Virus record (IMG/VR): IMGVR_UViG_3300036790_000265
Location: 1 to 64,000 of that record
DNA: 64,000 nt
Strand: one strand, 5' to 3'
From: a virus
Taxonomy: Duplodnaviria > Heunggongvirae > Uroviricota > Caudoviricetes
Part shown: positions 8,278-51,485 of the stretch, piece by piece
Numbering within the stretch: the stretch's first letter is position 1
Layout: each line of letters opens with the position of its first letter
Notes under the pieces: generated by a model
Told to the model about the DNA's origin: nothing
Seen by the model: only the letters and a program-made list of their open reading frames with translations
Database searches by the model: none
Translations under genes and position numbers: made by a program

Positions 8278-9045
8278 TCAGGCCGCCTTGAGGCAGGGCA
8301 GGACCGGGATGGCCTCGGCCAGCCAGTTACCAGGCTCGGCCGCGAACCGGGGAGCTGGCATCGGTAGCCAGTGCGCCCACGGCAAATCGGTCTCGGAGGT
8401 GATACGGCGGCAGATGCGGCCGCGGCGGGCCCCTTCCGGGTAGTCGTTCCAGTTGATCCCGGCTTCCTGCCACAGCAGCTCTTGCATCTGGTCGCCGTTC
8501 AGGCCGTGGAGCCGGCTGTGCGAGAAGCAGGCTTGGGCGGCCATCGCGATCGAGTTCCGTACCGCGTCGCGTTGCCGCCACAGGAAGTAGTTCGCCACCT
8601 CGACCGCGCTGGGGATGGTGAACACCCGCCCGTCGAACATGGCCGGATGCGGCGGCAGCGCTTGCACCAGGCCGGGGATGGTCCGGGCGCGGTCGTTGAA
8701 CGTTGCGGTGGCCAACGCGGCGGCCGACGACGCGATCTTCTGGACGTTCCCGCCGAACCACGGTTCGGTTTGGAAGGTGGCGAAGTCGGTGAGCAGCAGC
8801 GACACTTCGTCGGATTGCTGGTAGGAGAACACGGTCCCGCTGATCTGCGAGCACAACGCGACAGCAACCAGGTTGATCGCCTGCATGACCCCGTAGTCGA
8901 ACGGGCGTTTAGCCTGGCGCAGGTAGGTGTGGAACGCGCGGCCGTCGACGCGGATGATCGTGTAGGTGCGGCGTGGAAGCACCTGCCGGGTTGGGGTCTC
9001 GTAGGCCTTCATACGGTCGCCGAGGGCTGTGCTGTCACTGCTCAA
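8278..9045 (-). CDS. Thg1-like protein (tRNA-His guanylyltransferase family, 3'-5' nucleotidyl polymerase)
   Basis: YTIIRVDGRAFH, QQSDEVSLLL and FDGRVFTIPS...YFLWRQRDAVRN align with Thg1 motifs VVVRLDGRNFH, GQSDEYSFVF and FDGRVVVYPS...YLSWRQADCH. Confidence 0.8.
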   Translation of the reverse strand: MSSDSTALGDRMKAYETPTRQVLPRRTYTIIRVDGRAFHTYLRQAKRPFDYGVMQAINLVAVALCSQISGTVFSYQQSDEVSLLLTDFATFQTEPWFGGNVQKIASSAAALATATFNDRARTIPGLVQALPPHPAMFDGRVFTIPSAVEVANYFLWRQRDAVRNSIAMAAQACFSHSRLHGLNGDQMQELLWQEAGINWNDYPEGARRGRICRRITSETDLPWAHWLPMPAPRFAAEPGNWLAEAIPVLPCLKAA

Positions 9046-9395
9046 ACGATCACGCTCGCACTCCCGGGATGGGGCTCGTAGGGGTTATCGCGGCTGTCGG
9101 TCACGTTGATGAGCGGGGCCGTGCAGGTCACCACCACCGGTTCCCCCGGCCCGACTTCATGCTTGAGGGCGAGCGAGTCCTGGTCGTCCACTTCGCTGAG
9201 GTTCATCTGCCCCTGGGCGACGGTGCGCGGGTCTTTCCCGCGGCCGGGGACTGCGCGGACGGTAACCGGGGCGATGATGTCGCCGGGGTCAGAGATCAGC
9301 ATGTCGGGCGGCAACCAGACTGTGATGACGTCGCCGGGTTGCAGGCCGTTCGGGTGACGGGTCACCCACGAGTTGTAAACCTGGTCACTGGCCAC
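9042..9395 (-). CDS. hypothetical protein
   Basis: ORF, ATGA coupling. Confidence 0.4.
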   Translation of the reverse strand: MASDQVYNSWVTRHPNGLQPGDVITVWLPPDMLISDPGDIIAPVTVRAVPGRGKDPRTVAQGQMNLSEVDDQDSLALKHEVGPGEPVVVTCTAPLINVTDSRDNPYEPHPGSASVIV

Positions 9396-10230
9396 GGAGA
9401 GACCGCCTCTCCCGGGCCGGGCCGGTCTCGGGTGACCGCCAGTCGCCGAGATCAGGCGGTGGCGGTGGGATCACGTCGCCCGCGCCGAGGGCGACGACCT
9501 CGCGGGCGGTGAACGGGCCGGCCGTTGCCAGCGCGGGCAGCACGAGCGGCCAGGTGAGGTGTTCGCCGTGGGTCCTGGTCACCCACTCGGCGTCTGGCCA
9601 CGCGGGCACCTCGGCCGGTTCCCACGTGAACGTGAGCGCGCGGTCGTCGTCGCCTGGGTTGTACTGCCACAGGTACGAGCCTTCGTCGTCAGGCGGCCAG
9701 GTGGCCTCATACCAGCCAGACGCAGGAGCCACATAGCCGCCGAGAATCACCGAGGCCCAGAAGCCGATGACATCTGGGTCGATGTCCCGCACGGTGTAGA
9801 CGCCCATAGGGGACAACGTCGTTGGATCAGACCCCGGGCAAGTGCCGTAGCGAACCTCTGGCAGGCCTTCCAACTCTCGGAGGCGGTTCAACGTCATGCA
9901 CCCGTACGACACGACATCGAACGAGCGGACGATCGGCTCACATTCGGCGTAGATCCAGCCGAGCAGACCGGAGACGGCGCGAGTTTGGGAGCCTCGTACC
10001 CAGCCGGCGTAAGGGCTGTCGTGCCAGTTCTGCGCGGCGACGTCGGCGACCGCGAGCCAGGCGGCGTATCCGTCCAGGCCGGTGTCGTGCATGACCTGAC
10101 GTACGGTCTCGATGTCGCGGGGCGGCAGGTGCGGGAACACGCGGCCGGTGCAGCGCATCGCGTCCTCGCTGACCGTCCAGTCGTCGAGGGCGCCGTCGAT
10201 CGCGGCTAGGACGCTAGCGACATCAGGCAC
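9385..10230 (-). CDS. hypothetical protein (281 aa)
   Basis: ORF between the Thg1-like and RtcB genes; GTG start in cccGTGCCTGATg context. Confidence 0.45.
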   Translation of the reverse strand: MPDVASVLAAIDGALDDWTVSEDAMRCTGRVFPHLPPRDIETVRQVMHDTGLDGYAAWLAVADVAAQNWHDSPYAGWVRGSQTRAVSGLLGWIYAECEPIVRSFDVVSYGCMTLNRLRELEGLPEVRYGTCPGSDPTTLSPMGVYTVRDIDPDVIGFWASVILGGYVAPASGWYEATWPPDDEGSYLWQYNPGDDDRALTFTWEPAEVPAWPDAEWVTRTHGEHLTWPLVLPALATAGPFTAREVVALGAGDVIPPPPPDLGDWRSPETGPARERRSLRGQ

Positions 10231-10236
10231 GGGCCG

Positions 10237-11409
10237 CTACTCTCCCTTAACGTTCACGATCTGCCGCAGCGTGTGCACGACCTCAACGAGGTCGGCCGCG
10301 TCGGCCATCACCTGATCGACTGGCTTGTAAGCGCCGGGGATCTCGTCCAGGAACGCATCGCTGTGCCGCCATTCGATGCCCTCCATTGCGGTGTCGAGCT
10401 GCTCGCGGGTGAACGTCTTGCGGGCCGAGTTGCGGCTGTGCATCCTGCCAGCACCATGCGGCGACGAGTTGAGTGCCAGCCGGTTTCCCTTTCCCCGCAC
10501 GACGTACGAGGCGGTGCCCATCGAGCCGGGAATCAGGCCCGGCGTGCCGTCGCTGGCGTCGATCGCGCCCTTGCGGCTCAGCCAGACTTTCTTGCCAAAA
10601 TGGGTCTCCTGCTCCGTGTAATTGTGGTGACACTGCACCGCCTCCAGGCCGGTGACCGGCATGCCGGTCCAGGCGTCCAGGCACAGAAGGACGCGGTGCA
10701 TCATCTCCTGCCGGTTCAGCAGGGCGAAGTGCTGCGCCCAGCGCAGGTCGCGGATGTAGGCCCAGAACTCGTCGTCGCCCTCGACCAGGTAGGCGAGGTC
10801 TGGGTCGGGGAGGCTGATCCACCGCTTCTTGCACTGCTGCTGGGCGATCTTGATGTGGCGCATGGCGAGCTTGTTGCCGACGCCGCGCGAGCCGCTGTGC
10901 AGGAACGCCCAGACGTGGCCGTGCTCGTCGAGGCTGATCTCGATGAAGTGGTTCCCGCTGCCCAGCGAGCCGAGTTGCAGCCGCCAGTTCGGGGCGATGG
11001 CCTCCGCGCTGGCCGCGCCATCGCCGAACTCCTCCAGGTCGGCGATCCGCTGCTCGGTCGCGGCGCCGAAGACGGCCTCGTTGTAGACGCCGACCGACAG
11101 CGGGATGGCCTGCTCGATGGCCTCGCGCAGCCTGCTCAGGTGCGGCAGCCCGCGCACGTCCGCAGCGGTCAGGTGGGTGCGCACGGCATGCATGCCGCAG
11201 CCGATATCGACGCCGACCGCTGCCGGCATGATCGCACCGAGCGTCGGGATCACGCTGCCCACGGTCGCGCCCTTACCGAGGTGCGCGTCCGGCATCAGCG
11301 CGATGTGCGGGTGGATGAACGGCATCGTCGACGCCAACTCGGCCTGGGTGCGCGTGTTCGGCTCCAGGATCGACGCCCAGTTGATCAGGCGTTTCGTGAT
11401 CTGCTCCAT
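10237..11409 (-). CDS. rtcB: RNA-splicing ligase RtcB (3'-phosphate/5'-hydroxyl RNA ligase)
   Basis: Near full-length colinearity with E. coli RtcB: MPDAHLGKGATVGSVIP, VGVDIGCGM, GSGNHFIEI, HSGSRGVGN, CHHNY, PGSMG, HGAGR. Confidence 0.95.
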   Translation of the reverse strand: MEQITKRLINWASILEPNTRTQAELASTMPFIHPHIALMPDAHLGKGATVGSVIPTLGAIMPAAVGVDIGCGMHAVRTHLTAADVRGLPHLSRLREAIEQAIPLSVGVYNEAVFGAATEQRIADLEEFGDGAASAEAIAPNWRLQLGSLGSGNHFIEISLDEHGHVWAFLHSGSRGVGNKLAMRHIKIAQQQCKKRWISLPDPDLAYLVEGDDEFWAYIRDLRWAQHFALLNRQEMMHRVLLCLDAWTGMPVTGLEAVQCHHNYTEQETHFGKKVWLSRKGAIDASDGTPGLIPGSMGTASYVVRGKGNRLALNSSPHGAGRMHSRNSARKTFTREQLDTAMEGIEWRHSDAFLDEIPGAYKPVDQVMADAADLVEVVHTLRQIVNVKGE

Positions 11410-19737: not shown

Positions 19738-20016
19738 TCAGGCCTCCGTGGTGTAGTCGGCCTGCTCGGCGCGGTACTGGGCTTCGTCGTCCGGGGTGAG
19801 GGGGGCCGGGCCGGCGAGGACGTTCTCGTAGGCGTTGACGGCGGCCCACCGGTCGAACTGGTTCTCCTCGGTCGTCCAGCCGGTCTCCCCGAGCGCGTCC
19901 ATCAGCAGAGCGGAACCCTCGTCGGCCAGGTCGCCGAAAGGGGCGATCCCGGCGTTGCGGTGCTCGCGGGCGAGGTCGATGGCCCGCTGGGCGAGGGTCT
20001 GGGTGATGGTGGTCAT
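19738..20016 (-). CDS. hypothetical protein
   Basis: ORF immediately downstream of the operator-bearing intergenic region. Confidence 0.4.
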   Translation of the reverse strand: MTTITQTLAQRAIDLAREHRNAGIAPFGDLADEGSALLMDALGETGWTTEENQFDRWAAVNAYENVLAGPAPLTPDDEAQYRAEQADYTTEA

Positions 20017-20035: not shown

Positions 20036-20098
20036 GGTGTATATACACCATCATAGCGGAGGTGTATCGACACAGGCAAGAGGTTCGTATATACACCG
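20036..20098. promoter_or_regulatory. operator-like palindromes (GGTGTATATACACC perfect, plus GTGTATCGACAC and CGTATATACACCG variants) in an intergenic promoter region
   Basis: 14-bp perfect palindrome at 20036-20049; related half-sites nearby; the same motif recurs at about 21.75 kb and 28.86 kb. Confidence 0.5.
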
Positions 20099-20114: not shown

Positions 20115-20486
20115 TCACTCGACCGCCTCACACGACTTGCAGATCCACCGGTCCGGGTCGTCCAGATCGCGTCGGCAGGTGCGCCGCTCCTCGCAGCACC
20201 AGCAGAGCTGATTGCGCTTCTCCTCCCGCCCCGGCAGCGGCTCAGGCCCAGGCTCGGGCAGTGGGACCGCACCAACGCGCTCGCGGTAGATCGCCCGCAC
20301 CGCCTCGTCCCGCTCAGCCAGCGCCGCCACCAGATCGGCCTCCGAGAGGTCCGTCGCGACCTGCCGGAGCATCGGCCCGAACTCGGCCACACACTGCGGG
20401 CACGGGCTGGCCGGTGAGTCTGACTGGTTCCGGCAGCCGGGGAGTGCACACTCGGCGAACAGAACGAGCTGGCCGACTTCCGTCAT
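20115..20486 (-). CDS. zinc-finger-rich hypothetical protein
   Basis: Multiple CxxC pairs. Confidence 0.4.
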   Translation of the reverse strand: MTEVGQLVLFAECALPGCRNQSDSPASPCPQCVAEFGPMLRQVATDLSEADLVAALAERDEAVRAIYRERVGAVPLPEPGPEPLPGREEKRNQLCWCCEERRTCRRDLDDPDRWICKSCEAVE

Positions 20487-21304
20487 GCTGCACTCCAATC
20501 CAGGCCAAGGGAGTCCTGCTCGCCGACCGTGACAAGCCGCGACAAGAGGTCGGCGCGCCACTGGGAGGCGTAGATCAAACAATTGGCGCAGTTCTTGTGC
20601 GTGTGGCCGGGTAGCGGCGGGTTACGCCGCGCCTCATAGCTCCAGGCCATCGAGTCGGCCGAGATGAGCTTGTGCCCAAACGACCGCAATCCCTGGGTCT
20701 TCACCCCGAACGCGTGCACCGCATACTCGGGGGTCAGGGCCTCGATCAGCATGCTGATCCGCGCGGTCCCCTGCCGCCGGCACACCGACCCGACCCCGAC
20801 AACCGGATAGTCCGCCAGCTTCACCCCGGCCGCGGCGTACAGGTCAGCGCAGCGGAGGTATTCGCCGATCGTCCAGCCCTGCAACACGGGCATGAACGGG
20901 CACTCGCTGTCGCTGTACGCAGGCCAGAGGTTCACGAGCTGGAGGAAGTTCTCAACTGTCCGCCGCTGGTGCTCACCAACGCTCAGGTGGGTACCGGGGC
21001 AGCCCGCGCCGCCCTGGATGATCCACGGCTCGCACATCCAGTCCTGCGGCGCTGCCCACTCCAGGTGCCCGATCTCAGTGTCGTAGCGGGCCACGGCCGC
21101 GCAGTACTCGGCCGGGGTGGTGCGCCACTCCCCGAACTTGGACAGTTCGGTGAAGCCGCCGCTGTCGAGCGCCCAGCCGTGTGTGGACGGCTGGAAGGTC
21201 TTGTAGCGGGACAGCGCGCGGTGGCCAACGAACATCGGGAAGTCGGCGGCGGGGGTCCACAGCCAGTGGGGCTGGTGGGAGCCGAGGTAGAAGTGGCAGG
21301 TCAC
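20483..21304 (-). CDS. TGT-superfamily transglycosylase-like protein (tRNA-guanine transglycosylase / DpdA-like)
   Basis: WALDSGGFTE matches the TGT active-site motif LTDSGGFQV; VVGVGSV matches MGVGKP; CxxC near the C terminus. Confidence 0.5.
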   Translation of the reverse strand: MTCHFYLGSHQPHWLWTPAADFPMFVGHRALSRYKTFQPSTHGWALDSGGFTELSKFGEWRTTPAEYCAAVARYDTEIGHLEWAAPQDWMCEPWIIQGGAGCPGTHLSVGEHQRRTVENFLQLVNLWPAYSDSECPFMPVLQGWTIGEYLRCADLYAAAGVKLADYPVVGVGSVCRRQGTARISMLIEALTPEYAVHAFGVKTQGLRSFGHKLISADSMAWSYEARRNPPLPGHTHKNCANCLIYASQWRADLLSRLVTVGEQDSLGLDWSAA

Positions 21305-21307
21305 CGC

Positions 21308-21718
21308 TCAGCCCTCCTGGGTCTCGCGGTGGGCGCGGGCGAGCCGGCGGGCGTCCACGCGGTTGTCTCCCCAGACGACCCAGCCGCACGTGCAGAGCGC
21401 AGCGGCGGACTTGTCATGCATGGGCCGCCCGCGCTTGTCGAAGTAGCCGGTCTCAGGCATCGGGCAGAAGGTCCGCGTGTTGTGCTCAACGGCCGGGGCG
21501 GCGGGAACAGGCTCAGGGTCGCCGCAGACATGCGATAGGGCCTCCACACTCGCAGGCAGGTCCGCGAGGCAGTCCCCGCAAAACCAGGTGCTGGTGTCCT
21601 CGTCGTAGCAGCGCAGGTCCGAGCGGCCGGTGATGACTTCACGGTCGGCGAGCGTGAGGGGGCGGTCGCTGCATTGGCCTTTGCAAGACCAGTGGTTGTG
21701 TAGCTGGCCAACCGTCAT
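21308..21718 (-). CDS. Cys-rich hypothetical protein
   Basis: Start chosen at the internal Met just downstream of the operator region; the longer ORF form is a GC-frame artefact. Confidence 0.4.
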   Translation of the reverse strand: MTVGQLHNHWSCKGQCSDRPLTLADREVITGRSDLRCYDEDTSTWFCGDCLADLPASVEALSHVCGDPEPVPAAPAVEHNTRTFCPMPETGYFDKRGRPMHDKSAAALCTCGWVVWGDNRVDARRLARAHRETQEG

Positions 21719-21738
21719 GTCCGCTCCATCCTTGCGTT

Positions 21739-21775
21739 GTGTACATACACCATCGTACATTGGTGTAGAGACACC
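21739..21775. promoter_or_regulatory. operator-like palindromes GTGTACATACAC and GGTGTAGAGACACC
   Basis: Same GGTGT...ACACC family as at 20.04 and 28.86 kb, in a divergent intergenic region. Confidence 0.45.
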
Positions 21776-21826
21776 CCACAAGGAGGACAGTTGCACCCCG
21801 TCGATACACCTGCCAGCATCGGGCGT

Positions 21827-22234
21827 ATGCCCAACCAGCCGGCGACCAAGAACAAAGCCTTCCGCGCCCACCACTGGGACGAGTTCGGCGACGCCACCGA
21901 GGCGATGGGCACCAACAGGTCCGTAGTGCTGAACGCCTACATCGCCTACCACCTCGGCCTGCCCGGCGCGATCCTGCCCGACCTGCCACCCGGCCACCCC
22001 GACATGACCGGCGACCAGATACCCCCACCAGTCGAACTCGTCACCGAGCCAGCCATCGAAGCAGGCTTGGAAGCCGTCGAGGGCCAGGCCGCATGGGACA
22101 CCGCCGCGGCGGACCCGTCCGCCCGCCGGCTGCTCGTGCACCTCGCCTTGCAGGCCGCCGCGCCGCTGATCGGCACCGCAGCCCGGACGGTCGCCAGGGC
22201 GCGCCCACGGCGGACGCCTAGCGCCGGCTCCTGA
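21827..22234 (+). CDS. hypothetical protein on the opposite strand (candidate regulator or moron)
   Basis: Lone plus-strand ORF inside the minus-strand array, diverging from the operator region. Confidence 0.35.
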   Translation: MPNQPATKNKAFRAHHWDEFGDATEAMGTNRSVVLNAYIAYHLGLPGAILPDLPPGHPDMTGDQIPPPVELVTEPAIEAGLEAVEGQAAWDTAAADPSARRLLVHLALQAAAPLIGTAARTVARARPRRTPSAGS

Positions 22235-27354: not shown

Positions 27355-27463
27355 GGCCGCTACCAGCCTCCGTTCCGGGTCCGGATCGCGCCGGTCATTG
27401 GTGCTCCGCTCGTGTCAGTGGGTGACCCGGTGGCCCCACCCAGGAGGGCGGGCCACCGGCTGG

Positions 27464-28831
27464 TCAGGCTGGGATCGGGGAGGGCAGGTACTTGTCGATC
27501 CAGGCGAGGCCCTGGCGGCCGAGGACGAGCTGGGCGCGGGTGACCGTGACGTAGGCCAACATCGCGTCCTCACGGGCTACCTCGCCGTTTGAGCCGTCGT
27601 CGTTCGGCTTCGGCTCGCGGAAGTCGCTGGCGACGAGGACCCGCTTCCATTCGCGGCCCTTGGCCTTGTGAGCGGTGGAGACCACCGCATCGGGGTCGTT
27701 CTCCGCGTGGTCTTGGACCTCACCCCAGGTGCGGAACGCGAACAATTCGGGGTGCTGGGTGCCGATACCGGCCTTGAGGTCGATCGCAGCCTCGGCCATC
27801 CGCAGCATCTCGTCGCCGCCACCGACCAGCGCGACCCGGCGGCCCGCGGCGAGTTCGGTCATGACCTGCTCGACGGCTTTTGCGTTGGTGCGGCACAGCA
27901 CGGCGTCAGGGGCGGTCAGGTCGCCGTCCACGACGACAGAGTTCAGCTGCTCGAACCCGGTCACCCGTAGTTCGGCGCCCAGGATGGTGAGCCACTTGTT
28001 GGCCTCGGCGGCGACGGCCGGGCCGAACCGGAACGACTTCGACAGGTGCAGGCGGATGTCGGTGGGGAACTTGTCCATCGCGTCGATCGCGCCCCGCCAC
28101 CCGTAGATCGCCTGGCACGGGTCGCCGACCGCGACGATCTGCGCGGACTGCTGGGCGAGGATCACGGCCAGCACCGCCGGGTTAGCATCCTGCGCCTCGT
28201 CGAACAGGATGAAGTCGTACGGGAGTTGGGGGCTGCTCAGGGACCAGATTTTGAGGTAGACGTCATGGTCGAACTTGAGCTGCCCGTCCAGGCGTACGAG
28301 GTCGTCCCAGGCGCGGCAGGCGTAGGGGTGGATCGCGTCCTGGATCACGCTGCGTTCGCTGGGGGTGTCGAACCCGGGGATGTGCGGGACGTGCTTGAGC
28401 AGAACCTGGGTGTCGGCGCTGTGGCAGAAATTCGAGACGGTTTTGAGGGCGAGGCGGGCGATCTGGTTGGGCTGGATCATGCCTTCGCTGGACACCCGGA
28501 GCGCGTCGTTGATCTTGAGGATGCGGGCGGCCTGGGTGGCCGGGACGCGGGGGCCGTGGAGGCGGGCCCGGTACTTGTGCCCGTAGGCGCGGTAGGCGAT
28601 GGAGTGAGCGGTCGCGCAGAGCGTTCCTGATGGGAATGAGTTGGCCGCGTCGTTGGCGATGGCCCTGTTGTAGGCGAGGTAGAGGCCACGGCGTCGGCCA
28701 GCGGCCTCGGCCAGCATGCGGAGGCTGGTGGTCTTGCCTGATCCGGCCGCAGCAACGATCGTGACCGACAACTCGGCCAGGAACGCATCGCGGATCTTCG
28801 TTTGCTCGCCGGTTGGGGTGGGGGTGCTCAT
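27464..28831 (-). CDS. UvrD/Rep-family SF1 DNA helicase
   Basis: Motifs AAAGSGKT (Walker A), FDEAQD, GDPCQAIYGWRGA, STAHKAKGREW, YVTVTRA. Confidence 0.85.
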   Translation of the reverse strand: MSTPTPTGEQTKIRDAFLAELSVTIVAAAGSGKTTSLRMLAEAAGRRRGLYLAYNRAIANDAANSFPSGTLCATAHSIAYRAYGHKYRARLHGPRVPATQAARILKINDALRVSSEGMIQPNQIARLALKTVSNFCHSADTQVLLKHVPHIPGFDTPSERSVIQDAIHPYACRAWDDLVRLDGQLKFDHDVYLKIWSLSSPQLPYDFILFDEAQDANPAVLAVILAQQSAQIVAVGDPCQAIYGWRGAIDAMDKFPTDIRLHLSKSFRFGPAVAAEANKWLTILGAELRVTGFEQLNSVVVDGDLTAPDAVLCRTNAKAVEQVMTELAAGRRVALVGGGDEMLRMAEAAIDLKAGIGTQHPELFAFRTWGEVQDHAENDPDAVVSTAHKAKGREWKRVLVASDFREPKPNDDGSNGEVAREDAMLAYVTVTRAQLVLGRQGLAWIDKYLPSPIPA

Positions 28832-28854
28832 CTGGTCCTGCCTTCCATGAACCC

Positions 28855-28928
28855 GACGTGGTGTATATACACCACTCTAGTCAGGTGTAGTGACACCATG
28901 CAAGCCGGGAGCATATACACCACGTCGG
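28855..28928. promoter_or_regulatory. operator cluster: perfect GGTGTATATACACC, GGTGTAGTGACACC, and a 15-bp inverted repeat CGACGTGGTGTATAT...ATATACACCACGTCG
   Basis: Read directly; sits in the intergenic region upstream of the helicase gene. Confidence 0.55.
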
Positions 28929-28934: not shown

Positions 28935-29804
28935 TCATGCGGCGACCGCCGCCCGTTGCCCCGTGCGCCGCAACGCAGCCTGGAACGCGTTCTTGCCGAC
29001 CCTCAGCCGTTCCCGGGCCTGATCCCGCGTGTATCCCTGCGCCAGCAGCTCGGCGGCGTCCTCGGCCACGTCAGCCGCCCGGCGGGTGCGCCGGCCTGTC
29101 GGCTTCCAGCCTTCGGCCGGCCCGGCCGAGGGGTCATCGATGGTGTCGTCGTCCCACGCGAGCGGCGGCACCCACCCCCGCGCAGCCGCGTAGTTCCGCG
29201 CGTAGGACATCGCTGTCCGCTCGGCTCGTGTCCGCTGCGGCGGCGGCTGATCCCACAGCCGGTCGTAGAGCTCACGGACAGCTCGTGCCAGGGAGGCGGT
29301 GACGATGCCGCTCCGAACCGATCCACGGAGCCGTTCTTCCGGGCGACCCAGATACGCCGCTAGGACGGACTGGGGGTAGCCGACCGCTACGAGGGCCTGG
29401 ATACGGCGGACGGTACCGGCCGGTTCGACCCGCGCCCGGTAGCCGTAGGCGTTCAGCGTCGGCTTGACCGCGAGGATTCTGGTGGCAGTCTCGACGCGGA
29501 CCCGCTTAGCCGGGCCCATGATGTAGATAAGGCTGGACTGGGATAGTCCGGTCAGGGCGGACAGGCGCCCTTGGCTGATGCCAGCGGCGTCCAAGGCCAG
29601 GACGTGGTCGCGGACTGGTCCCGCGTCCGTGTAGGTGTTCCACCGGCCGTACGCCTTGGCTCGAATCCGCCGGTCCCGGGCGGCAGCCTGAGCGGCCCTG
29701 CACGGATCGCAGCGGCACCCGCGGCCTCGGATCCGGCCCGGTTCGGGGCCCCACGTGTAGCAACCGGTAGTGCCGTGCTGGCGGTAGGTGGGAGGCGCGC
29801 TCAT
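28935..29804 (-). CDS. HTH DNA-binding protein with N-terminal Cys cluster (289 aa)
   Basis: LSALTGLSQSSLIYIMGPAKRVRVETATRIL looks like an HTH; CYTWGP..CRCDPC; long N-terminal Arg/Pro extension rejected as a frame artefact. Confidence 0.45.
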   Translation of the reverse strand: MSAPPTYRQHGTTGCYTWGPEPGRIRGRGCRCDPCRAAQAAARDRRIRAKAYGRWNTYTDAGPVRDHVLALDAAGISQGRLSALTGLSQSSLIYIMGPAKRVRVETATRILAVKPTLNAYGYRARVEPAGTVRRIQALVAVGYPQSVLAAYLGRPEERLRGSVRSGIVTASLARAVRELYDRLWDQPPPQRTRAERTAMSYARNYAAARGWVPPLAWDDDTIDDPSAGPAEGWKPTGRRTRRAADVAEDAAELLAQGYTRDQARERLRVGKNAFQAALRRTGQRAAVAA

Positions 29805-32800
29805 GCGGTGGCCTCCGGGGTGTGGAGTATGGCCCGCAGCCGTGCCCCGATCCACTGGCCGACCTGCGGTGTGACGCCGTTGCCGTATCCGTCGACCTGG
29901 TCCCGCGCGCTGCCCCATACGACGAAGGAGCCTTTGTAGCCGTAGCCGGGGAAGTCGACGTCGAAGCCGCAGCCCCGGCCGACCTCGTGGGGACCCAGCA
30001 TCTTGAAGTACCAGTCCTCGAGTGGCAGGTCCCTGAGGGCTGCGGTGAGCAGCGCGGTAGTGTCGCGGCTGGTGAGCGTGCCGAACGGGTCGCTGACCGG
30101 GTGTGGCGCGGTGGCGTCGCTGCTGCGGCCGTTCTGTTTGAACCAGCCGGAGAACAGCGCCCCCTGCGTGATGGCCGAACCGACCACGGTGCCCAGCGGG
30201 TCGCTGAGCGGGTGGGTCCGGTACTTCGCCTCGTCGATCGAGCCGTTGTTCTTGATGGTGCCGCCCGCCGTGAGCAGGCCGAGCGTTTGACTGGCGGTTA
30301 CCGCAGGCATTGGGTCGGCCGGGCCGACTGGAGCGCTGGCCCGGCGAAGCGGGACAACGCCAGACGACAGGACACCGAGGCCGCCCGAGCCAGCGCCGCC
30401 GACGAGGGTCTGCATGGGCTCGGTCACGCTGCGGCTTGTGCCGTTGGTGCGGTTCGGCAGAATCCGCGCGGTCAGCAGGCCGAGGGTTTCCGAGCCGCCT
30501 TGCGTTGGCAGGGGCTCGTCTGCGCCGCGGGGGGAACCTTGGTAGTTGTCCACGGCAACTGCGATGGGGGGCGTCATCAGGCCTGTGGAGTTGGTTCCGG
30601 TTTGTGCCCACAGCGGCTGGTCGAGGCCGCGTGAGCGGCAGTTCGAGCCGGGCCGTTCGAAGGTGTGCCCGGCGGCGCCCATGATGACGCCAGTCGAGGC
30701 GATGAGGGCGGCCTTTTCGTGGGTGGTCGTCACGGTGTCCATCGGCCGGGTGATGTGCTGGCCGTCGCCGTTGTGACGGTGCGCGGGGACGACCGAGCCA
30801 GTCATGGCGACACCGGCAGTCTGGGATGTCATCGGCTGCCACGGGTGTCCGCCCGGGCCGGTCACGGCCGAAGCGGGCATCAGGACGAGAGGGAACTCGG
30901 CGGCCCGCTGGCGGCACCGTTCGGCACGCTCCATCGTCGAGGCGGCCAGCGGCTTGGCCCGGTCACCGATCCGGGTGCCGAGGTTGGTCAGGTCCAGCGC
31001 GTCCAGCGACGGGGACATGGGGGGGATGACCTCGGCGCGGCACCTCGGGCAGCGGTAGTCGTACTGTTCGCCGTAGCACACCTTCCCTGTGGCCGGGATG
31101 CCTGTACGCCAGGTCCAGACGGCTTCGACGACCTGATCGCAGCGGCTGCACCACGAGGGGGGCCGGTGTTCAAGGTCGGGCTTGGGCAGGCGCCGGTCCC
31201 AGAAGACGCCGAACCACCGGTTCCGGGACTGGGGCACTCCAAAGAACATCGAGTTCAGGTACAGGATCTTGTAGTCGTAATTGAGTTTGGTGAACTGCTT
31301 GAGCCACCAGCGGTAGGTGGAGCCGTCGCCGACCTTCCGCCGGCCGGGGATCGCTGGGCCCCAGGACTGGATCTGGGTGGTGCACTCGACGAGGATCAGC
31401 CGCGGGTGGTGGCGTTCGGCGTAGTGCAGGACGCAGTTATGAACGATCAGCCCATCGGCGACGAAGCTGTGATCCTCCTCCACCTCGATGTCGAAAACCT
31501 GGGCTTGGCGATTCTCGTCAATCACCTCGCGAACGACACCTACACACCGGCCGTTGATCGTGGCGATGGTTGATGTGCGGCGCTGCTGGGCCATCCACTG
31601 CAAGATCCACGCCGGGCGGGTGATGCCGGATCGGCCTTCGATGGTCCACTGCTCAGGCTTCCGGCAGCGGAGCGTCGGCCGGTACCCGAGACCCTGCAGG
31701 AGAAGTTTCATCCCGATCGCGAGTTTCCGGCTGACCGTGGCGCACGATCCTCGCCGACCGCCGAGGCCGGTCGCGCCATCGGCGGACAGATAACCTTCGA
31801 CTAGCGCCTTCCGGTATTCCTCGTCCATGCTCAGCGCCCACGCGGGAATCGTCTTACCGTGGGCTAGTTCGCCGAAGTGCTCCATCAGCCACCGGGCGAA
31901 CGGCCCGCTGCCACGCAGTTCGTAGCGGATTATGGTGGGGTCCTCATGGACCCGCGCAGCGGCCCACATGCCGTCGAGTTCCGCGCGCTCGGCGTGGCCG
32001 CAGCAGATGCCAACCATTACTCCGGACGGAGAGCAATGCCGGATCCATCCGTCGCCGAGCCACCGGCCGACAGTCCACCAGAAGTGATGGTCGTAAGCCC
32101 ACCCGTTAGGAGCAGGCGGAACGGCGCACTCCGGGAATTCGGTCGGCGACTGCCATGCATGGCCAATCAGATCGGCGGCGGCCGTCCAGTCCTCGGCACC
32201 GCTGAACACCCAGCCACGCCGGGTTAGCTCAGATGCCCGGGTCAGGAACTGGTGATCGGCAGTCACCTCGAGGGCGGTGTGCCCACGGCCCTTGACAGTG
32301 ATCACGCGGGAGCGGCGAGACATCGTGGCTGTCACTCGCCGCCACCGGTTCCGATGTGTTAGAACTTCGTCCCCGGCCGCCAGCTCCTCGATGGGGACCA
32401 TGCCACGTCGCGCCACCACGATGGTTCCTGCCGGGAAGCAGTTGGCGGTGGCCCGGTCCCGCTCGGAGCGGGTCACCCGCGCGTCGAAGTCCGGATCGTC
32501 GAGGTCGAACAGTGACAGCCTCTGCTCGTACGCCTTGATCGTGTTCGCCTGGGAATGGTTGACGCAGCTGACACCTGCGACCAAGAGATCGGCGGCGGGC
32601 AGATCGCGAGCGGAGTGGTAATCCGACGAGTCAGGGTCAACGAGGTCTGCGATCCAGTGTTCGGCGTGCGGGTGGTTGGCCTCGTGCACCTCGACTTTGT
32701 ACGCGTTGTGGTTGGCCGCCATGATCGTTGTGAAGCCGGCCATCTCGATGCCGCGAGTCAATCCACCGAAACCGGAGAAAAGATCAACGGCGATCAGGTC

Positions 32801-32857
32801 ATCGTGGGCGAACCTGCGACGGCGAGCGGCCGGCCGGTGCTCAGCAGTTCGCGTCAT
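29801..32857 (-). CDS. C5 DNA cytosine methyltransferase, intein-containing, large multi-TRD variable region
   Basis: Motif I DLFSGFGGLTRG; motif IV region DLLVAGVSCVNHSQA (SC in place of PC); motif VI LILVECT; motif VIII GVPQSRNRWFGVF; RxLxxxExxxMLG...FD..FP; C-terminal GNGVTPQVGQWIG (motif X). Confidence 0.8.
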   Translation of the reverse strand: MTRTAEHRPAARRRRFAHDDLIAVDLFSGFGGLTRGIEMAGFTTIMAANHNAYKVEVHEANHPHAEHWIADLVDPDSSDYHSARDLPAADLLVAGVSCVNHSQANTIKAYEQRLSLFDLDDPDFDARVTRSERDRATANCFPAGTIVVARRGMVPIEELAAGDEVLTHRNRWRRVTATMSRRSRVITVKGRGHTALEVTADHQFLTRASELTRRGWVFSGAEDWTAAADLIGHAWQSPTEFPECAVPPAPNGWAYDHHFWWTVGRWLGDGWIRHCSPSGVMVGICCGHAERAELDGMWAAARVHEDPTIIRYELRGSGPFARWLMEHFGELAHGKTIPAWALSMDEEYRKALVEGYLSADGATGLGGRRGSCATVSRKLAIGMKLLLQGLGYRPTLRCRKPEQWTIEGRSGITRPAWILQWMAQQRRTSTIATINGRCVGVVREVIDENRQAQVFDIEVEEDHSFVADGLIVHNCVLHYAERHHPRLILVECTTQIQSWGPAIPGRRKVGDGSTYRWWLKQFTKLNYDYKILYLNSMFFGVPQSRNRWFGVFWDRRLPKPDLEHRPPSWCSRCDQVVEAVWTWRTGIPATGKVCYGEQYDYRCPRCRAEVIPPMSPSLDALDLTNLGTRIGDRAKPLAASTMERAERCRQRAAEFPLVLMPASAVTGPGGHPWQPMTSQTAGVAMTGSVVPAHRHNGDGQHITRPMDTVTTTHEKAALIASTGVIMGAAGHTFERPGSNCRSRGLDQPLWAQTGTNSTGLMTPPIAVAVDNYQGSPRGADEPLPTQGGSETLGLLTARILPNRTNGTSRSVTEPMQTLVGGAGSGGLGVLSSGVVPLRRASAPVGPADPMPAVTASQTLGLLTAGGTIKNNGSIDEAKYRTHPLSDPLGTVVGSAITQGALFSGWFKQNGRSSDATAPHPVSDPFGTLTSRDTTALLTAALRDLPLEDWYFKMLGPHEVGRGCGFDVDFPGYGYKGSFVVWGSARDQVDGYGNGVTPQVGQWIGARLRAILHTPEATA
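31436..32440 (-). mobile_element. intein (about 335 aa) with LAGLIDADG-type homing-endonuclease motifs, inserted between MTase motifs IV and VI
   Basis: Begins ...ATAN|CFPAGTIVVARRG, ends ...FVADGLIVHN|C; internal WLGDGWI and YLSADGATG blocks. Confidence 0.7.
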
Positions 32858-40196: not shown

Positions 40197-40366
40197 CAGG
40201 CCGCGTCACTTTCCTTCCGCGAGGCGGCGTCGGTGTTGTGCTGGCGGGCGCGGGCCGCGACCCGTTCGATCTCGTCTCGGGTGAGAGCAGGCGCCGGGTC
40301 AGCGGCTTCGTCAGCGACGCCGGCGGCGAACGCCTGCTCGGCCGTGACGATCCGGTCGGTGCTCAT
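40196..40366 (-). CDS. small protein (56 aa) co-transcribed with the XRE repressor
   Basis: ATGA overlap with the XRE gene stop. Confidence 0.3.
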   Translation of the reverse strand: MSTDRIVTAEQAFAAGVADEAADPAPALTRDEIERVAARARQHNTDAASRKESDAA

Positions 40367-40659
40367 GACTGGCTCGGCACGCTGAGGGGGCGCCGCGCCG
40401 CGCTTCCGTCCCGGCTCGTGCCGGTCAGGGCACCGTGCAGAGATGTGCCGGGCTTGACGATGGCCACCAGCGGGACATCCAACTCGCGGGCGATCGCGGT
40501 GAGCGTCTCCAGACCTGCGCCGCGGTTTCCGTTCTCGATGTTCTTGAGTGACGACGATGCGATGCCGACCCGCGCGGCGAACTCGTCCGGCTTCAGGTCG
40601 CGGTCCCGGCGCAGGCGCCTGATCTCGGCACCGTCCTGGTACCCACTGCTGACATCCAC
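40363..40659 (-). CDS. XRE-family HTH repressor (CI-like)
   Basis: EIRRLRRDRDLKPDEFAARVGIASSSLKNIENGNRGAGLETLTAIARELDVPL. Confidence 0.8.
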   Translation of the reverse strand: MDVSSGYQDGAEIRRLRRDRDLKPDEFAARVGIASSSLKNIENGNRGAGLETLTAIARELDVPLVAIVKPGTSLHGALTGTSRDGSAARRPLSVPSQS

Positions 40660-40885
40660 AAGGACACTCTAGGATTCACGAGGAATCAGCGTCAAGTCCT
40701 CTGGAGCATCTTTTGCCACATCAGAGACCTAGTGAATCATCCTGAACCTTAGTAGACGCACGAGAAACCCTTATGGTTTACCGGCTGACTTGACAGATTC
40801 GGGCGTGCTGGGAGACTCTAGGCCGGGAGCGGATTCCCCCTGAATCCCTAGGCCGCCGCCTGGGCCACACGGAGGCACACCCCTG
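40660..40885. promoter_or_regulatory. divergent promoter/operator region; GGATTC-n5-GAATCC inverted repeats at 40672-40687 and 40831-40847, CTAGG repeats
   Basis: Read directly; AT-richer than surroundings. Confidence 0.55.
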
Positions 40886-41308
40886 ATGGCAGCAGACCCG
40901 CGCTGGGTGCACCTGGGTACCCTCCTGGTACGCAGGCGCGTCGAGATGAACCCCAGGTTCCGCAACCGGCGCACCTTCGCAGCCGAGCGCAAGATCGAGT
41001 ACCGCTACGTCAGCGACATCGAGCGCGCAGCCCGCTCCAACTTCGAGGCACAGACCATCGCCCAGTTCGAGATCGCCTACGACCTGCCCGCGGGCGCGAT
41101 TGAGCGCGCCATCGCCACGGGAGTACTTGTCACCGGCGATGACGTGCCCGAGCCGGTGCCAGCCCCAGAACCAGAGAACACGGACCTGGCGTATGTGCGG
41201 AAGTCGCTCCCGCATCTAGAGCCGGCGCACCTCGCCGTCCTGGCCGGCCTCGTGAAGTCCTGGATCGAGCCGATTCCACCGGCCGTGGACCAGCGGCACA
41301 CCGCCTAA
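40886..41308 (+). CDS. HTH DNA-binding protein (Cro/antirepressor-side gene of the switch)
   Basis: RRTFAAERKIEYRYVSDIERAARSNFEAQTIAQFEIAYDLPAGAI. Confidence 0.55.
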   Translation: MAADPRWVHLGTLLVRRRVEMNPRFRNRRTFAAERKIEYRYVSDIERAARSNFEAQTIAQFEIAYDLPAGAIERAIATGVLVTGDDVPEPVPAPEPENTDLAYVRKSLPHLEPAHLAVLAGLVKSWIEPIPPAVDQRHTA

Positions 41309-42717: not shown

Positions 42718-43029
42718 GTGACCGGGTTATCCCCGGTGATCGGGCTGATCCAGGTACTCGCTAAGAACTGGTGGATCATGGAAATCGACCGGTTCGGGCC
42801 CGAGCCCGCCTACGTGCAGATAGCCAACTGGCTCAGGCAGCGGATCACCAGCGGCGATCTGCCACCAGGCACCCCCATCCCCAGCAAGAAGCAGATACGC
42901 CAGGAACTCGGCGTCGCCGGCCAGACAGTGGACAAAGCTGTCCAGATACTCAAAGACGAAGGCCTCGTGGCCACCGCCCGCGGCCTCGGCATCTACGTCA
43001 TCGACACCAAGAAGCCCCGCCAGCCATAA
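42718..43029 (+). CDS. GntR-family winged-HTH regulator (short, HTH-only)
   Basis: PAYVQIANWLRQRITSGDLPPGTPIPSKKQIRQELGVAGQTVDKAVQILKDEGLVATARGLGIYV. Confidence 0.75.
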   Translation: MTGLSPVIGLIQVLAKNWWIMEIDRFGPEPAYVQIANWLRQRITSGDLPPGTPIPSKKQIRQELGVAGQTVDKAVQILKDEGLVATARGLGIYVIDTKKPRQP

Positions 43030-46276: not shown

Positions 46277-46810
46277 ATGGCCGGCAAGAACGGCGCAGGG
46301 AAGGCCCTGTTCGCAGCGTTCATCGTCGCCGGACTGGCCTCCGGAGCGCACGCTGGCGCAAGCACCGGCAGCCACAACGGAGGCGATCCCGACTCGATGG
46401 CGGCCACTCCCGCTGGTGCCGCCAACGCGACGAGCGCCGTCGCCTACGCCAAAGCGCAACTCGGTTGCCCGTACACGTGGGGTGGCACCGGGCCGTGCTC
46501 GGCCGGGTACGACTGCTCGGGCCTGGTGCAGCAGGCATGGGCGGCAGCTGGTGTGAGCATCGAGCGCACCGCTGACGAGCAGTGGAACTCGCTGCGTCAC
46601 ATCCCGGCCAGTCAGCGCGCGGTGGGGATGCTCGTGTTCGCGCCTGGGGCGGACGGTACATGGTCTGCACCGGGCCACGTCGGGATGCTTCTCGGCCGCT
46701 GGAGCGTGATCGAGGCTTACGCCACCGGCTACCCGATCAAGATCGTCTCGCTCAGCACCTTCGGCGCGAAAGCAGGCGGGATCATCGGCTACGCGGAGGT
46801 ACAGCAATGA
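46277..46810 (+). CDS. secreted NlpC/P60-family peptidoglycan endopeptidase
   Basis: Signal peptide; YAKAQLGCPYTWGGTGPCSAGYDCSGLVQQAWAAAGV...GHVGM. Confidence 0.85.
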   Translation: MAGKNGAGKALFAAFIVAGLASGAHAGASTGSHNGGDPDSMAATPAGAANATSAVAYAKAQLGCPYTWGGTGPCSAGYDCSGLVQQAWAAAGVSIERTADEQWNSLRHIPASQRAVGMLVFAPGADGTWSAPGHVGMLLGRWSVIEAYATGYPIKIVSLSTFGAKAGGIIGYAEVQQ

Positions 46811-47250
46811 CCCGCCTGCGCGGGGCCGCCGCCGCGGCCGTCGTCGGGATCACGCTGGCCGCAGTGTCGCAAAGCCACGGCGGCCACCAGGTCTTGACGC
46901 ACGTCGCCGCGGCCATGCAGCAACCGGGCACCAGTTCCACCAGCCCGGCCGCGAACAAGGCTCTCGCGGACCGGATGGCGGCCGCGGCCGGGTGGGACAG
47001 CCGGGAGATCGGCTGCCTGAACGAGGTCTGGCAGCGCGAGTCCGGGTTCCGGGTCACGGTGTGGAACTACCAGGGCGCGGACGCTTACGGCATCCCGCAG
47101 GCGAACCCCGCCGACAAGATGGCCAGCGCCGGCCCGGACTGGCGCACTGATCCCGCGACCCAGATCAAGTGGGGCCTCGGCTACATCAAGGATCTCTACG
47201 GCTCGCCCTGCGGGGCCTGGTCGCACGAAAAATCGCACGGCTGGTATTAG
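46807..47250 (+). CDS. secreted lysozyme-like / transglycosylase-like protein
   Basis: Signal peptide; CLNEVWQRESGFRVTVWNYQGADAYGIPQANP. Confidence 0.5.
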   Translation: MTRLRGAAAAAVVGITLAAVSQSHGGHQVLTHVAAAMQQPGTSSTSPAANKALADRMAAAAGWDSREIGCLNEVWQRESGFRVTVWNYQGADAYGIPQANPADKMASAGPDWRTDPATQIKWGLGYIKDLYGSPCGAWSHEKSHGWY

Positions 47251-47287
47251 GCCAGCCGGCACCAACCAAGGAAGGGAACCACCCGCC

Positions 47288-47539
47288 ATGTCTGGCACCA
47301 CCACCGCAGTTGCACAAAAGCTGCATCCGGTCGTCCTGACCGCGCACAAGGTCACGCTCACCGCGCTGGCCCCGGCTAAGCACGCCGTGACCAACGCGTG
47401 GGCCGACCAGCCTGGCCACCCGCACATGACCCCGAACGAGGGGGCCGTTCTCGCCGGCGTGATCCTGCTCCTCATCGTGATCGGGGTCATCTTCGCCATC
47501 TCCACCGCCATCTCCACCGCCATCGACTCTCGCCGCTGA
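47288..47539 (+). CDS. small membrane protein
   Basis: TM LAGVILLLIVIGVIFAI. Confidence 0.45.
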   Translation: MSGTTTAVAQKLHPVVLTAHKVTLTALAPAKHAVTNAWADQPGHPHMTPNEGAVLAGVILLLIVIGVIFAISTAISTAIDSRR

Positions 47540-47557
47540 TCTTCGAAGGAACACCTG

Positions 47558-47884
47558 ATGGCTACCAGTGCTGCCGACCGCGCGGCCAACCGCGCCGAGT
47601 CGGTCGAGGTTGCCGTCAGGAGGCTCCTGGCCGAGGGCAACCCGCACGCGGCGCTGAACCTGGCGGTCGGGACATTCCAATCCGAGGCCGCCAAGGTCCG
47701 CCGCCGCCGCCCAGCCGACGCGGCGCTCATCGACGCCGAGCTGGCCGGGTCGCTCCTCGCGCTCGCGGCCCAACTCCACACCTACAAGCCGACCCGGCCA
47801 GCCGGACGCTCTCGGGTACCGGGCCCGGCTGACCTGCTCGCGATGCTCGACTCAAGCCTGGGAAAGGGGCAGACTCATGGGTGA
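47558..47884 (+). CDS. hypothetical protein
   Basis: GAAGGAA RBS. Confidence 0.45.
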   Translation: MATSAADRAANRAESVEVAVRRLLAEGNPHAALNLAVGTFQSEAAKVRRRRPADAALIDAELAGSLLALAAQLHTYKPTRPAGRSRVPGPADLLAMLDSSLGKGQTHG

Positions 47885-48371
47885 CCAGCTACCAGCCCTG
47901 CTGAGTTTCCTTCACGATGGGGAGACCTCTCCTGAGCCTGCCGCCCCGGCCGCGCCGGCCACAGACCCGGCGCCGCAGGCCACGCCCGCGGTGGCGTTGC
48001 GGGGTGGCCAGTTGAGCACGGGCGAGCAGGCGCGGGCGATCATGGAGCTGGCGTGGCGTAGCAGTCGCCGCCGCTGGCTGGACACCGTACGCCGGCAGGG
48101 CGGCGTCGTGAACTGGCTGATGTCCACTCAGCCGCCGAGCGTCCTCGACCAATGCGAGTACGCGCAGTCGCGGGCATGGGTTCCAGCCGGCCACGAAGGC
48201 AAGTTCGCCGAGAAAGAGGGCGTGATCTTCCACGCCACGATCGGCAGGGGCGGTGTCGCGCTCGGCAACGCCATCTCGGCTATCTGCTCGCGCCAAACCT
48301 CCTTCTGGATCGCGTTCTTCGCGTTCCTCCTCCTCGCGGTGACTGTGACCGCACTCATTCTGTTCGCCTGA
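47877..48371 (+). CDS. membrane-anchored hypothetical protein
   Basis: C-terminal TM. Confidence 0.45.
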   Translation: MGDQLPALLSFLHDGETSPEPAAPAAPATDPAPQATPAVALRGGQLSTGEQARAIMELAWRSSRRRWLDTVRRQGGVVNWLMSTQPPSVLDQCEYAQSRAWVPAGHEGKFAEKEGVIFHATIGRGGVALGNAISAICSRQTSFWIAFFAFLLLAVTVTALILFA

Positions 48372-48402
48372 CCAGCGGACCACCTCATCGTCTTAAGGAC
48401 TC

Positions 48403-49047
48403 GTGTTTGCCATGACCCCTGTGGCTTTTCTCGGCATAGGCGCAGCCGCCTTCGGCATCTGGACGTGGGCGTACCAGAAGATGCCCCGGTTCACCTGCGT
48501 GATGCTGCTCCTGGCCGGGTTCCTGCTCACGATCGGCGTTCCTGTCCTCCTGGACGCGCTCGCCCGCGCAATCGCCGGTAACGCCGGCACCATCGTTCTC
48601 GGCATCGTTGATCTGTGCGGCCTGTGGAGTTTCTGGCACGAGGTCGTCCGCAGGCACCTGCACCACCGGATCCGGACCCCGGCTCTGTCGCTGGTGCTCG
48701 GGGTGGCGCTCGTGTTGTCGTGGGCCAGCCTGACCAGCCTGCTCAGCGAGGCCGTGCACAGCCCCGTCCAGGCGGGGAGCGCGCTCAGCCACGCCACCAC
48801 TGCGGTACGTTCCGGCCACGCCGCCGCAGCGGTAACCCCGGACAAGCAAATGATCGTCCTGGTCGCCGCGGCTGTGTTGCTGGCTCTGCTGGTGATCGGC
48901 GGGTTCCGGGCCGAACGTGGCGGCCGTGGCCGCAGTTCCGCCCGCGGCGGTGCTAGCCGGGGCGGCAGCCCGGTCGCGAGCAGGATCCCGGTCGCTCCGA
49001 GCGGTGGCCGCCGGCCCGCCGCGCTGCCCGGGGGGAAGCGCCGGTAG
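48403..49047 (+). CDS. polytopic membrane protein
   Basis: 4-5 TM segments. Confidence 0.5.
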   Translation: MFAMTPVAFLGIGAAAFGIWTWAYQKMPRFTCVMLLLAGFLLTIGVPVLLDALARAIAGNAGTIVLGIVDLCGLWSFWHEVVRRHLHHRIRTPALSLVLGVALVLSWASLTSLLSEAVHSPVQAGSALSHATTAVRSGHAAAAVTPDKQMIVLVAAAVLLALLVIGGFRAERGGRGRSSARGGASRGGSPVASRIPVAPSGGRRPAALPGGKRR

Positions 49048-51183: not shown

Positions 51184-51485
51184 CCCCGGCAGAGCTGATG
51201 GCCGCTGGCGTGCTGGCCGTGTTCATCCTGGTGGCCGGCTCGCGCCGGGTCCGGCACAGCGGCGCGGGCGCTGTCGCGTTCCTCGGCGCGGTCGCCTTGG
51301 TCGCGGTCGAGATCGCGAAGCACCAGCAGCCGGCCGCGGCCCGGCCGGTCGTCGTGACCCGCACAGTCGTCGAACACACCACGGCGAGTCACCCGGTGCT
51401 GTCGGGCTGGCCGCTGGTGGTGGTCATCGGCGTGGCCCTGGTGGTCGCGCTCGTCATCATGCTCAACATTCGATCAGGAGAATAG
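51180..51485 (+). CDS. membrane protein
   Basis: ATGA overlap with the FtsK-like gene; 3 TM. Confidence 0.5.

Follow-up and report, generated by a model that had tools for sequence, protein, structure and literature searches.

Three intergenic gaps in this stretch of actinomycete-like DNA carry the same short palindrome, which raises the question of what protein reads it and which genes are governed through it. The window analysed here is the whole stretch of 64,000 nucleotides. The exact 14-bp palindrome, GGTGTATATACACC, is present at 20036-20049 and 28860-28873, precisely as given in a preliminary description of this DNA. With up to three mismatches allowed, a pattern count found eight matches in the 64-kb window, against a mean of 0.61 in 100 dinucleotide shuffles, of which 0/100 reached eight. 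All eight are intergenic and lie in the three gaps, at 20.0, 21.7 and 28.9 kb; far from being equally frequent inside genes, the motif gave no match at this threshold in the coding sequence of the window. The sites start at 20036, 20061 and 20084 (locus A), 21738 and 21762 (locus B), and 28860, 28884 and 28908 (locus C), with a spacing of 23-25 bp from centre to centre within a cluster; the variant copies described earlier proved to be real, with coordinates that were off by 1-6 nt. A ninth, degenerate site at 21801-21814 keeps a perfect right half, ATACACC. In a matrix scan of the window the sites scored at least 16.9 bits and the best other position 8.4; the matrix was built from the same sites, which makes their own scores circular, but the scan still revealed no extra site. 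Outside the three clusters no site was found in the 64 kb or in the 7 kb past the right end, and nine of the ten copies of the half-site 7-mer GGTGTAT/ATACACC in the window fall inside the three loci. Across all sites collected, the outer GGTG and CACC are nearly invariant and the central four bases vary.

The three gaps have a G + C content of 54-56%, compared with about 68% for the window, in agreement with the earlier remark that they are unusually AT-rich. They are not, as was then thought, the only gaps in the minus-strand gene array: about ten others, of 63-161 bp, were found, which are GC-rich (59-74%) and lack the motif. The inverted repeat noticed at 28.86 kb is also present, but its size of 15 bp was an underestimate; locus C as a whole forms a dyad of 76 bp (28853-28928) with the middle site at its centre, and locus B forms one of 56 bp (21729-21784).

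Read in the minus-strand direction, the three loci share one module, CTTG-n3-palindrome-n4-TAnnnT-palindrome, and when they are aligned a Shine-Dalgarno sequence and an ATG follow 18-28 nt after the second palindrome. At locus A, the putative promoter P_A (minus strand, 20050-20079; TTGCCT-18-TATGAT) was called by a consensus promoter scan and is the only sigma-70-like site called by it in 19.5-29.5 kb. Candidate operator O1 (20036-20049, the perfect palindrome) lies directly downstream of its -10 hexamer, O2 (20061-20074, GGTGTATCGACACA) within its spacer, and O3 (20084-20097, TTCGTATATACACC) upstream of its -35 hexamer. At locus C, the putative promoter P_C (minus strand, 28874-28903) was read from the sequence as TTGCAT (28903-28898)-18-TAGAGT (28879-28874). 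Here O1 (28860-28873, again GGTGTATATACACC) abuts the -10 hexamer and covers the likely start site, O2 (28884-28897, GGTGTAGTGACACC) occupies the 18-nt spacer and forms the centre of the 76-bp dyad, and O3 (28908-28921, GGAGCATATACACC) lies 4 nt upstream of the -35 hexamer. Locus B was read in the same way as a mirror-symmetric divergent pair within 21732-21781, in which putative P_B(-) (minus strand, 21781-21752) is TTGTGG (21781-21776)-18-TACGAT (21757-21752) and putative P_B(+) (plus strand, 21732-21761) is TTGCGT (21732-21737)-18-TACATT (21756-21761). With -10 hexamers that overlap by 2 bp, the two promoters have both sites in common: 21738-21751 (TGTGTACATACACC) lies at +1 of the minus promoter and in the spacer of the plus promoter, and 21762-21775 (GGTGTAGAGACACC) in the spacer of the minus promoter and at +1 of the plus promoter, at -83 and -59, respectively, from the start codon of the plus-strand gene 21827-22234. 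The degenerate third site (21801-21814, CCCGTCGATACACC) lies in the leader of that gene at about -20, and has a counterpart at -24 to -32 in homologous loci. Each of the four putative promoters has one palindrome in an 18-nt spacer and one abutting the -10 hexamer, and at loci A and C a third is found just upstream of the -35 hexamer. A stricter sigma-70 consensus scan left two of the three minus-strand promoters, those of loci B and C, uncalled; these two fit the looser TTGnnn/TAnnnT pattern that is usual in actinomycetes, and we infer that the hexamers at loci A-C are real promoters. A TGTC in the middle sites also led to a comparison with promoters of the PafBC/RecA-NDp type, which have the pattern TGTCRGTG-N8-TAnnnT; this candidate was dropped, the match being partial and the dyad symmetry and flanking sites being left unexplained by it.

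The preliminary description had counted three promoters, but four are proposed here, as the divergent pair at locus B would also drive the gene of the candidate regulator. The division of the early region into operons suggested in that description (from 20.1 kb onward, 21.7 to 20.1 kb and 28.8 to 21.8 kb) is plausible. The first gene downstream of P_A (19738-20016, minus strand) encodes a 92-aa protein with no family match and heads a run of small genes. Downstream of P_B(-) is a minus-strand block (20115-21718) encoding a 136-aa protein without known function (21308-21718), a DpdA-type transglycosylase of 7-deazaguanine DNA modification (20483-21304) and a 123-aa cysteine-rich protein (20115-20486). 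No other dpd gene or queuosine-precursor gene was recognised among the window genes scanned. The first gene downstream of P_C (27464-28831, minus strand) encodes a UvrD-like superfamily 1 DNA helicase, and directly after it a GC-rich hairpin without a T-run is found at 27355-27463 (CCGGTGGCCC...GGGCCACCGG), which could attenuate P_C transcripts before the replication-initiator-like gene.

The gene reached from P_B(+), 21827-22234, is the sole plus-strand gene of the minus-strand array between 3.4 and 40.7 kb. It encodes a protein of 135 aa, the candidate regulator, with an N-terminal ribbon-helix-helix (RHH) domain at about residues 8-45. The product alone gave no family match even at E=10, with RHH_1 and phrog_6506 below significance; a word-index homology search returned only the protein itself, and neither Foldseek against the PDB nor a PDB sequence search gave a match. 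Remote homologues, 23 in number and mostly of 59-94 aa, came to light in a full HMMER scan covering 1.84 billion representatives (E 4e-10 to 9e-4); all of them match the first 55-60 residues, and the C-terminal region of about 90 aa was found in no homologue. The family consensus is MPNQPKTPxRxxRxD..W..FG.AA.A.GTDRS.V...F..WYL.RPGA.LP.RP, in which R13 and W17 are invariant or nearly so. When family profiles were counted over 21 aligned sequences (the window protein and 20 homologues), Pfam RHH_1 (CopG family) matched eight (best 1.5e-5) and phrog_6506, 'Arc-like repressor', matched 17 (best 2e-11). By transitive homology through these relatives, the window protein can be placed in the RHH fold family. 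An AlphaFold2 monomer built with the alignment has an extended N-terminus and helices at 17-26 and 31-43, with a pLDDT of about 91 there and a moderate 72 overall; the model from the single sequence (pLDDT 49) was uninformative.

The ATG at 21827 is backed as the start by the family N-terminus, MPNQP, which aligns to it. A TTG start at 21791 was also considered and dropped on this ground; it lies in frame behind AAGGAGGA (21780-21787), which mirrors the Shine-Dalgarno sequence of the divergent gene, and the combination may be a by-product of the dyad or an alternative start. The gene is monocistronic, its stop at 22234 facing the stop of a convergent gene at 22240, and the genes downstream of it are different in every relative. 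One family member carries the source label RelB/DinJ antitoxin; an RHH antitoxin of a type II toxin-antitoxin pair (RelB/DinJ, CopG-like) was rejected for the window protein, since no co-transcribed adjacent toxin was found and the gene is monocistronic. The family profile covers at least 600 clusters, from Streptomyces, Streptosporangium, Nonomuraea, Planotetraspora, Prauserella and others, nearly all labelled 'hypothetical protein' and without a precomputed Pfam domain. Some members are about 205 aa long (P0008, P0013, P0029, P0042 and P0043); the first three have three tandem RHH units each, P0042 and P0043 being of similar length. The three-unit members would be covalently linked multi-RHH proteins, unusual for this fold.

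The protein family and the motif were found to be linked in both directions. In all seven genomic contexts fetched by the RHH protein alone, GGTGY-N4-RCACC lies upstream of the RHH gene, usually in a divergent gap and, in six of them, no farther away than about 120 bp; comparable DNA (3.0 Mb) contains this pattern at a background density of 1.5e-5 per bp. Relative to the RHH gene the sites lie at -84, -60 and -24 in L312, at -82, -61 and -32 in L319 (with a second intergenic pair inside a minus-strand array), at -93 and -70 in L315, a phage with capsid and portal genes, at -73 and -37 in L316, at -45 in L311 (with two further intergenic clusters of 22-23 bp spacing) and at -290 in L314; in L322, from the Streptomyces albidoflavus assembly GCA_050353295.1, two copies of GGTGTAGCTACACC flank TAGAGT behind TTGCTT-18. 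Sites at about -83/-59, as in the window, occur in four contexts. An eighth locus, L098, which came from a set fetched by the helicase, has sites at -82, -58 and -24. By these comparisons the putative autoregulatory operator is kept at the same or a similar position in all seven protein-fetched contexts and in L098. In the other direction, 10 of the 21 GC-rich IMG/VR loci fetched by the exact 14-mer alone encode the RHH family, usually within a few hundred bases of the motif, compared with 2 of the 160 GC-rich control loci (3.0 Mb; Fisher p=2.6e-9); in one of these two controls the motif adjoins the gene. Although family members are only 35-50% identical, GGTG...CACC is retained as the outer half-sites, and often so is the 14-mer in its entirety. 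The hosts are Streptomyces, Streptosporangium and related genera, and the elements are otherwise unrelated, including phages with capsid and portal genes, integrase/WhiB elements and the element of the window. Scans of IMG/VR and JGI metagenomes for a two-site pattern yielded nothing beyond unrelated DNA richer in AT and a single coding repeat (L307). The linkage in both directions is the decisive evidence; it is comparative and indirect but strong, and it points to the RHH protein as the binder.

These data suggest, with a probability of about 0.72, that the palindromes are operators of the RHH (Arc/CopG-type) protein encoded at 21827-22234 and that this protein is autoregulated. Each palindrome would be bound by the protein, probably by two dimers that contact the outer half-sites GGTGT/ACACC, an arrangement proposed because the central 4 bp vary. 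Because the sites overlap the -35/-10 spacer and the start, their occupation (spacer, start site and upstream of the -35 hexamer) would exclude RNA polymerase, and the four promoters P_A, P_B(-), P_B(+) and P_C would be shut off together. P_B(+) would drive the RHH gene itself and so give negative autoregulation together with co-regulation of the targets; a single-input module of this kind is proposed because the promoter of the regulator has the same design as those of its targets. The circuit could keep the replication/modification module at a low set level, or yield a self-limiting burst. The binding of the RHH protein to the sites, the repressive effect and the identity of the promoters are here all inferred. 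The unique C-terminal region of the window protein could add a signal input. Since the operator is kept across family members in unrelated elements, RHH proteins of co-resident or incoming elements might also cross-repress each other's promoters and form a shared immunity or sensing network, which would contrast with the usual rapid divergence of repressor-operator specificity; we consider this extension doubtful.

Several other proteins were weighed as binders, among them two that the preliminary description had named beside the RHH protein. If the sites were read by an XRE protein (40363-40659 or 40886-41308), by the multi-HTH protein (28935-29804, whose gene ends 14 bp from locus C) or by a host factor, the RHH gene would be a mere member of the regulon. 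Several HTH proteins are indeed encoded in the element, conserved outer bases in a 14-bp palindrome are more usual where an HTH dimer binds than where one RHH dimer does, and the 23-25 bp spacing resembles that of lambdoid tripartite operators. However, the XRE intergenic region has a different palindrome, GGATTC-N5-GAATCC, and the XRE and multi-HTH proteins do not recur in the other motif-bearing loci, where the RHH gene is found again at a fixed distance from the sites; nor would a host factor account for a motif that accompanies one small gene in Streptosporangium, Streptomyces and related hosts. A binder of this kind is thus held to be unlikely. The short GntR-type winged-helix protein (42718-43029) is quite improbable as the binder, although the motif core GTATATAC fits GTMTAKAC, which is reportedly the consensus for GntR regulators of the HutC type, the window encodes a GntR domain, and L311, L246 and L316 have homologous short GntR genes in the vicinity of the RHH gene. 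No site was found near or within the GntR gene or anywhere in 40-46 kb, and no motif in the DNA available for three loci fetched through GntR homologues (L308-L310). Most loci with both motif and RHH gene have no GntR homologue in the available DNA (L312, L315, L319, L098, L272, L322 and others), such a gene being found in 3 of 17, all on partial contigs. The protein also consists of the DNA-binding domain only and does not have the HutC architecture: the product of 103 aa (149 aa from the longest start) matches PF00392 only, and its homologues are of 80-85 aa. Among the candidates named earlier, it is therefore the product of 21827-22234 that is borne out by linkage with the motif, and not XRE 40363-40659 or GntR 42718-43029.

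Two further readings would dispense with a repressor. The dyads might act as RNA, as terminator or processing hairpins between operons: every locus lies at a gene boundary, and read-through RNA would fold at -47.5 kcal/mol at locus C (z=-4.2) and -46 at locus B (z=-3.1). The fold of locus A is unexceptional (z=-1.3), the stems are not followed by the U-tract expected of an intrinsic terminator, and a terminator scan called nothing at the three loci. RNA structure alone would also fail to account for the recurrence of one 14-bp sequence at three loci and, in unrelated elements, beside one protein family. The palindromes stand, moreover, in fixed register with the -35/-10 hexamers. As the primary function this is very improbable; a secondary role of the dyads in RNA, as a barrier to read-through from upstream operons, is possible. 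Alternatively, the 50-bp module might be a special promoter for an element-specific sigma factor or activator, with the palindromes as promoter elements, and it is true that the entire module, beyond the palindromes, is conserved among the three loci. Yet none of the window genes scanned was found to encode a sigma factor or an RNA polymerase, the hexamers fit an ordinary TTGnnn-18-TAnnnT pattern, sites of dimeric repressors are typically dyad-symmetric and repeated in tandem, and a site between -35 and -10 is in a repressing position. We regard this as the least probable of the explanations. Repression by the RHH protein remains the preferred reading.

At the left end of the window, the element that carries this proposed switch has genes for a serine recombinase and a tyrosine integrase; elsewhere it encodes a HerA-like ATPase, a replication-initiator-like protein, a WhiJ-like XRE-DUF5753 protein, an XRE pair at 40.4-41.3 kb, a GH25 hydrolase and a tRNA-Gln. 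When about 50 window genes and a 1680-aa protein past the right end were scanned with PHROG and Pfam, no capsid, portal or terminase was recognised. The proteins just past the right end (1680, 378 and 709 aa) are tail-module-like, with no diagnostic match, and no close relative of the window by DNA or protein was found among isolated phages and plasmids. A plus-strand block at 46277-54401, between the regulatory region and the GH25 hydrolase region, encodes NlpC/P60 and SLT proteins, a full-length FtsK of 711 aa (alpha, motor and gamma domains) and a DUF2637 protein, and is similar to a conjugation or spreading module of actinomycetes. It is possible that the window is a hybrid or comprises two elements side by side. 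The earlier proposal of operators for one phage-encoded regulator can be kept, on the comparative linkage, as one element-encoded regulator; the word phage goes further than the scans allow, given the missing capsid, portal and terminase genes and the FtsK/NlpC-P60/SLT/DUF2637 module, although a phage is possible.

Other features of the window were noted in passing. In the divergent gap 40660-40885, between XRE 40363-40659 (minus strand) and a plus-strand gene for a 140-aa protein, GGATTC-N5-GAATCC occurs at 40672-40687 and 40831-40846, each copy adjoining CTAGAGT; the arrangement suggests an independent switch of the cI/cro type, served by operators of its own. GntR proteins of very small size, consisting of a winged helix alone (80-148 aa), recur with the RHH gene (L311 3480-3731, where the two genes adjoin; L246 about 6106-6294; L316 14995-15441; window 42718-43029) and may be a second regulator of RHH-bearing elements. 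A C5 cytosine DNA methyltransferase gene (29801-32857) is split by an intein (Hint_2, Intein_splicing, LAGLIDADG_3). An RtcB RNA ligase, a Thg1-like tRNA-His guanylyltransferase and tRNA-Gln(ttg) at 8278-11409 and 60877-60958 suggest an RNA repair or tRNA module; the tRNA overlaps opposite-strand ORFs with DUF6424 matches, and one of these calls may be wrong.

Synteny through the helicase was tried as an approach and abandoned, as the 160 loci fetched by it from GTDB genomes and IMG/VR have almost only the helicase in common with the window. Except in L098, the motif was absent from these loci, and no comparable palindromes were found upstream of their helicase genes. Other helicase-bearing actinomycete elements have clustered palindromes of their own at 21-28 bp spacing (L106 6162-6301, L159 3297-3391, L063 5894-5998 and L091 8928-9041), one example being seven copies of GGTACTGGAGTACC with a 21-bp period. 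Element-specific operator or iteron arrays seem to be common among such elements.

If the preferred reading holds, a function and a DNA target would be assigned to a protein labelled 'hypothetical protein' and, by extension, to an RHH family of at least 600 sequence clusters in actinomycetes. It would place a module of the element, consisting of the helicase, the DpdA-type DNA modification and small early genes, under common control. The promoter, operator and repressor would make up a compact, portable cassette, a candidate regulatory part for actinomycetes, and the motif would provide a rule by which regulated promoters could be annotated in prophages and integrative elements of actinomycetes. 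As the operator seems to be conserved among unrelated elements, the question arises whether these regulate one another. Full-text literature searches for the motif and its variants returned nothing relevant, searches of the literature on actinophage operators and RHH repressors gave no description of this protein-site pair, and the pair is absent from curated family names. The kind of switch is well known; this pair of RHH family and operator, with its cassette, is most likely undescribed and widespread in actinomycete elements.

Compared with known systems, the sites share with GntR/HutC operators such as the DasR dre site a palindromic form with a GT-n-TA-n-AC core, and GntR repressors are common in Streptomyces conjugative elements, a similar setting. 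Unlike regulators of that group, the GntR protein of the window has no effector (UTRA/HutC) domain and no site at its own gene, and it is not consistently linked to the motif. The preliminary description had likened the arrangement to stoperators. Those of cluster A mycobacteriophages (L5 gp71; PMC9283540) are asymmetric sites of 13-14 bp, numerous, orientation-dependent and scattered through transcribed regions, where a two-domain HTH repressor binds them as a monomer and elongation is stopped. The sites of the window are likewise short motifs recurring in intergenic gaps of an actinobacterial mobile element, presumably for one element-encoded repressor. The likeness goes no further, and the arrangement is not a stoperator system, since the sites are palindromic, number eight or nine in three clusters, all lie on putative core promoter hexamers, and have an RHH protein rather than a monomeric HTH protein as the candidate binder; no L5 gp71-like protein was seen among the window genes scanned, and the protein linked to the motif is of the RHH type.

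The plasmid regulators CopG (pMV158) and omega (pSM19035) offer a parallel, being RHH proteins that bind several adjacent repeats across a promoter and control copy-number or replication functions together with their own synthesis. Omega, however, reads 7-bp heptads in varied orientation and CopG one 13-bp pseudosymmetric element, whereas the window has 14-bp palindromes 23-25 bp apart that are common to four promoters. The layout also resembles O_R/O_L of phage lambda, with three dyad-symmetric sites over divergent promoters, one of which drives the repressor; site spacing in lambda is about 23-24 bp from centre to centre. CI and Cro are HTH proteins, however, and the two lambda promoters respond oppositely, whereas both promoters of locus B should shut together because the divergent pair is mirror-symmetric.

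There is a further parallel with Arc and Mnt of the immI region of Salmonella phage P22, where Arc gives a self-limiting pulse at P_ant. Here the differences are that the window protein is extended by about 90 aa at its C terminus, that its operator, GGTGYATATRCACC, is unrelated in sequence, that there are two to three sites per promoter at three separate loci in DNA of actinomycete hosts, and that no antirepressor gene was recognised in the window. In both systems a small protein with an N-terminal RHH domain is found with palindromic operators over core promoters that are divergent or overlapping, and here, as in P22, the regulator would repress its own promoter; the match of 17 of the 21 aligned family sequences to PHROG 6506, 'Arc-like repressor', points in the same direction.
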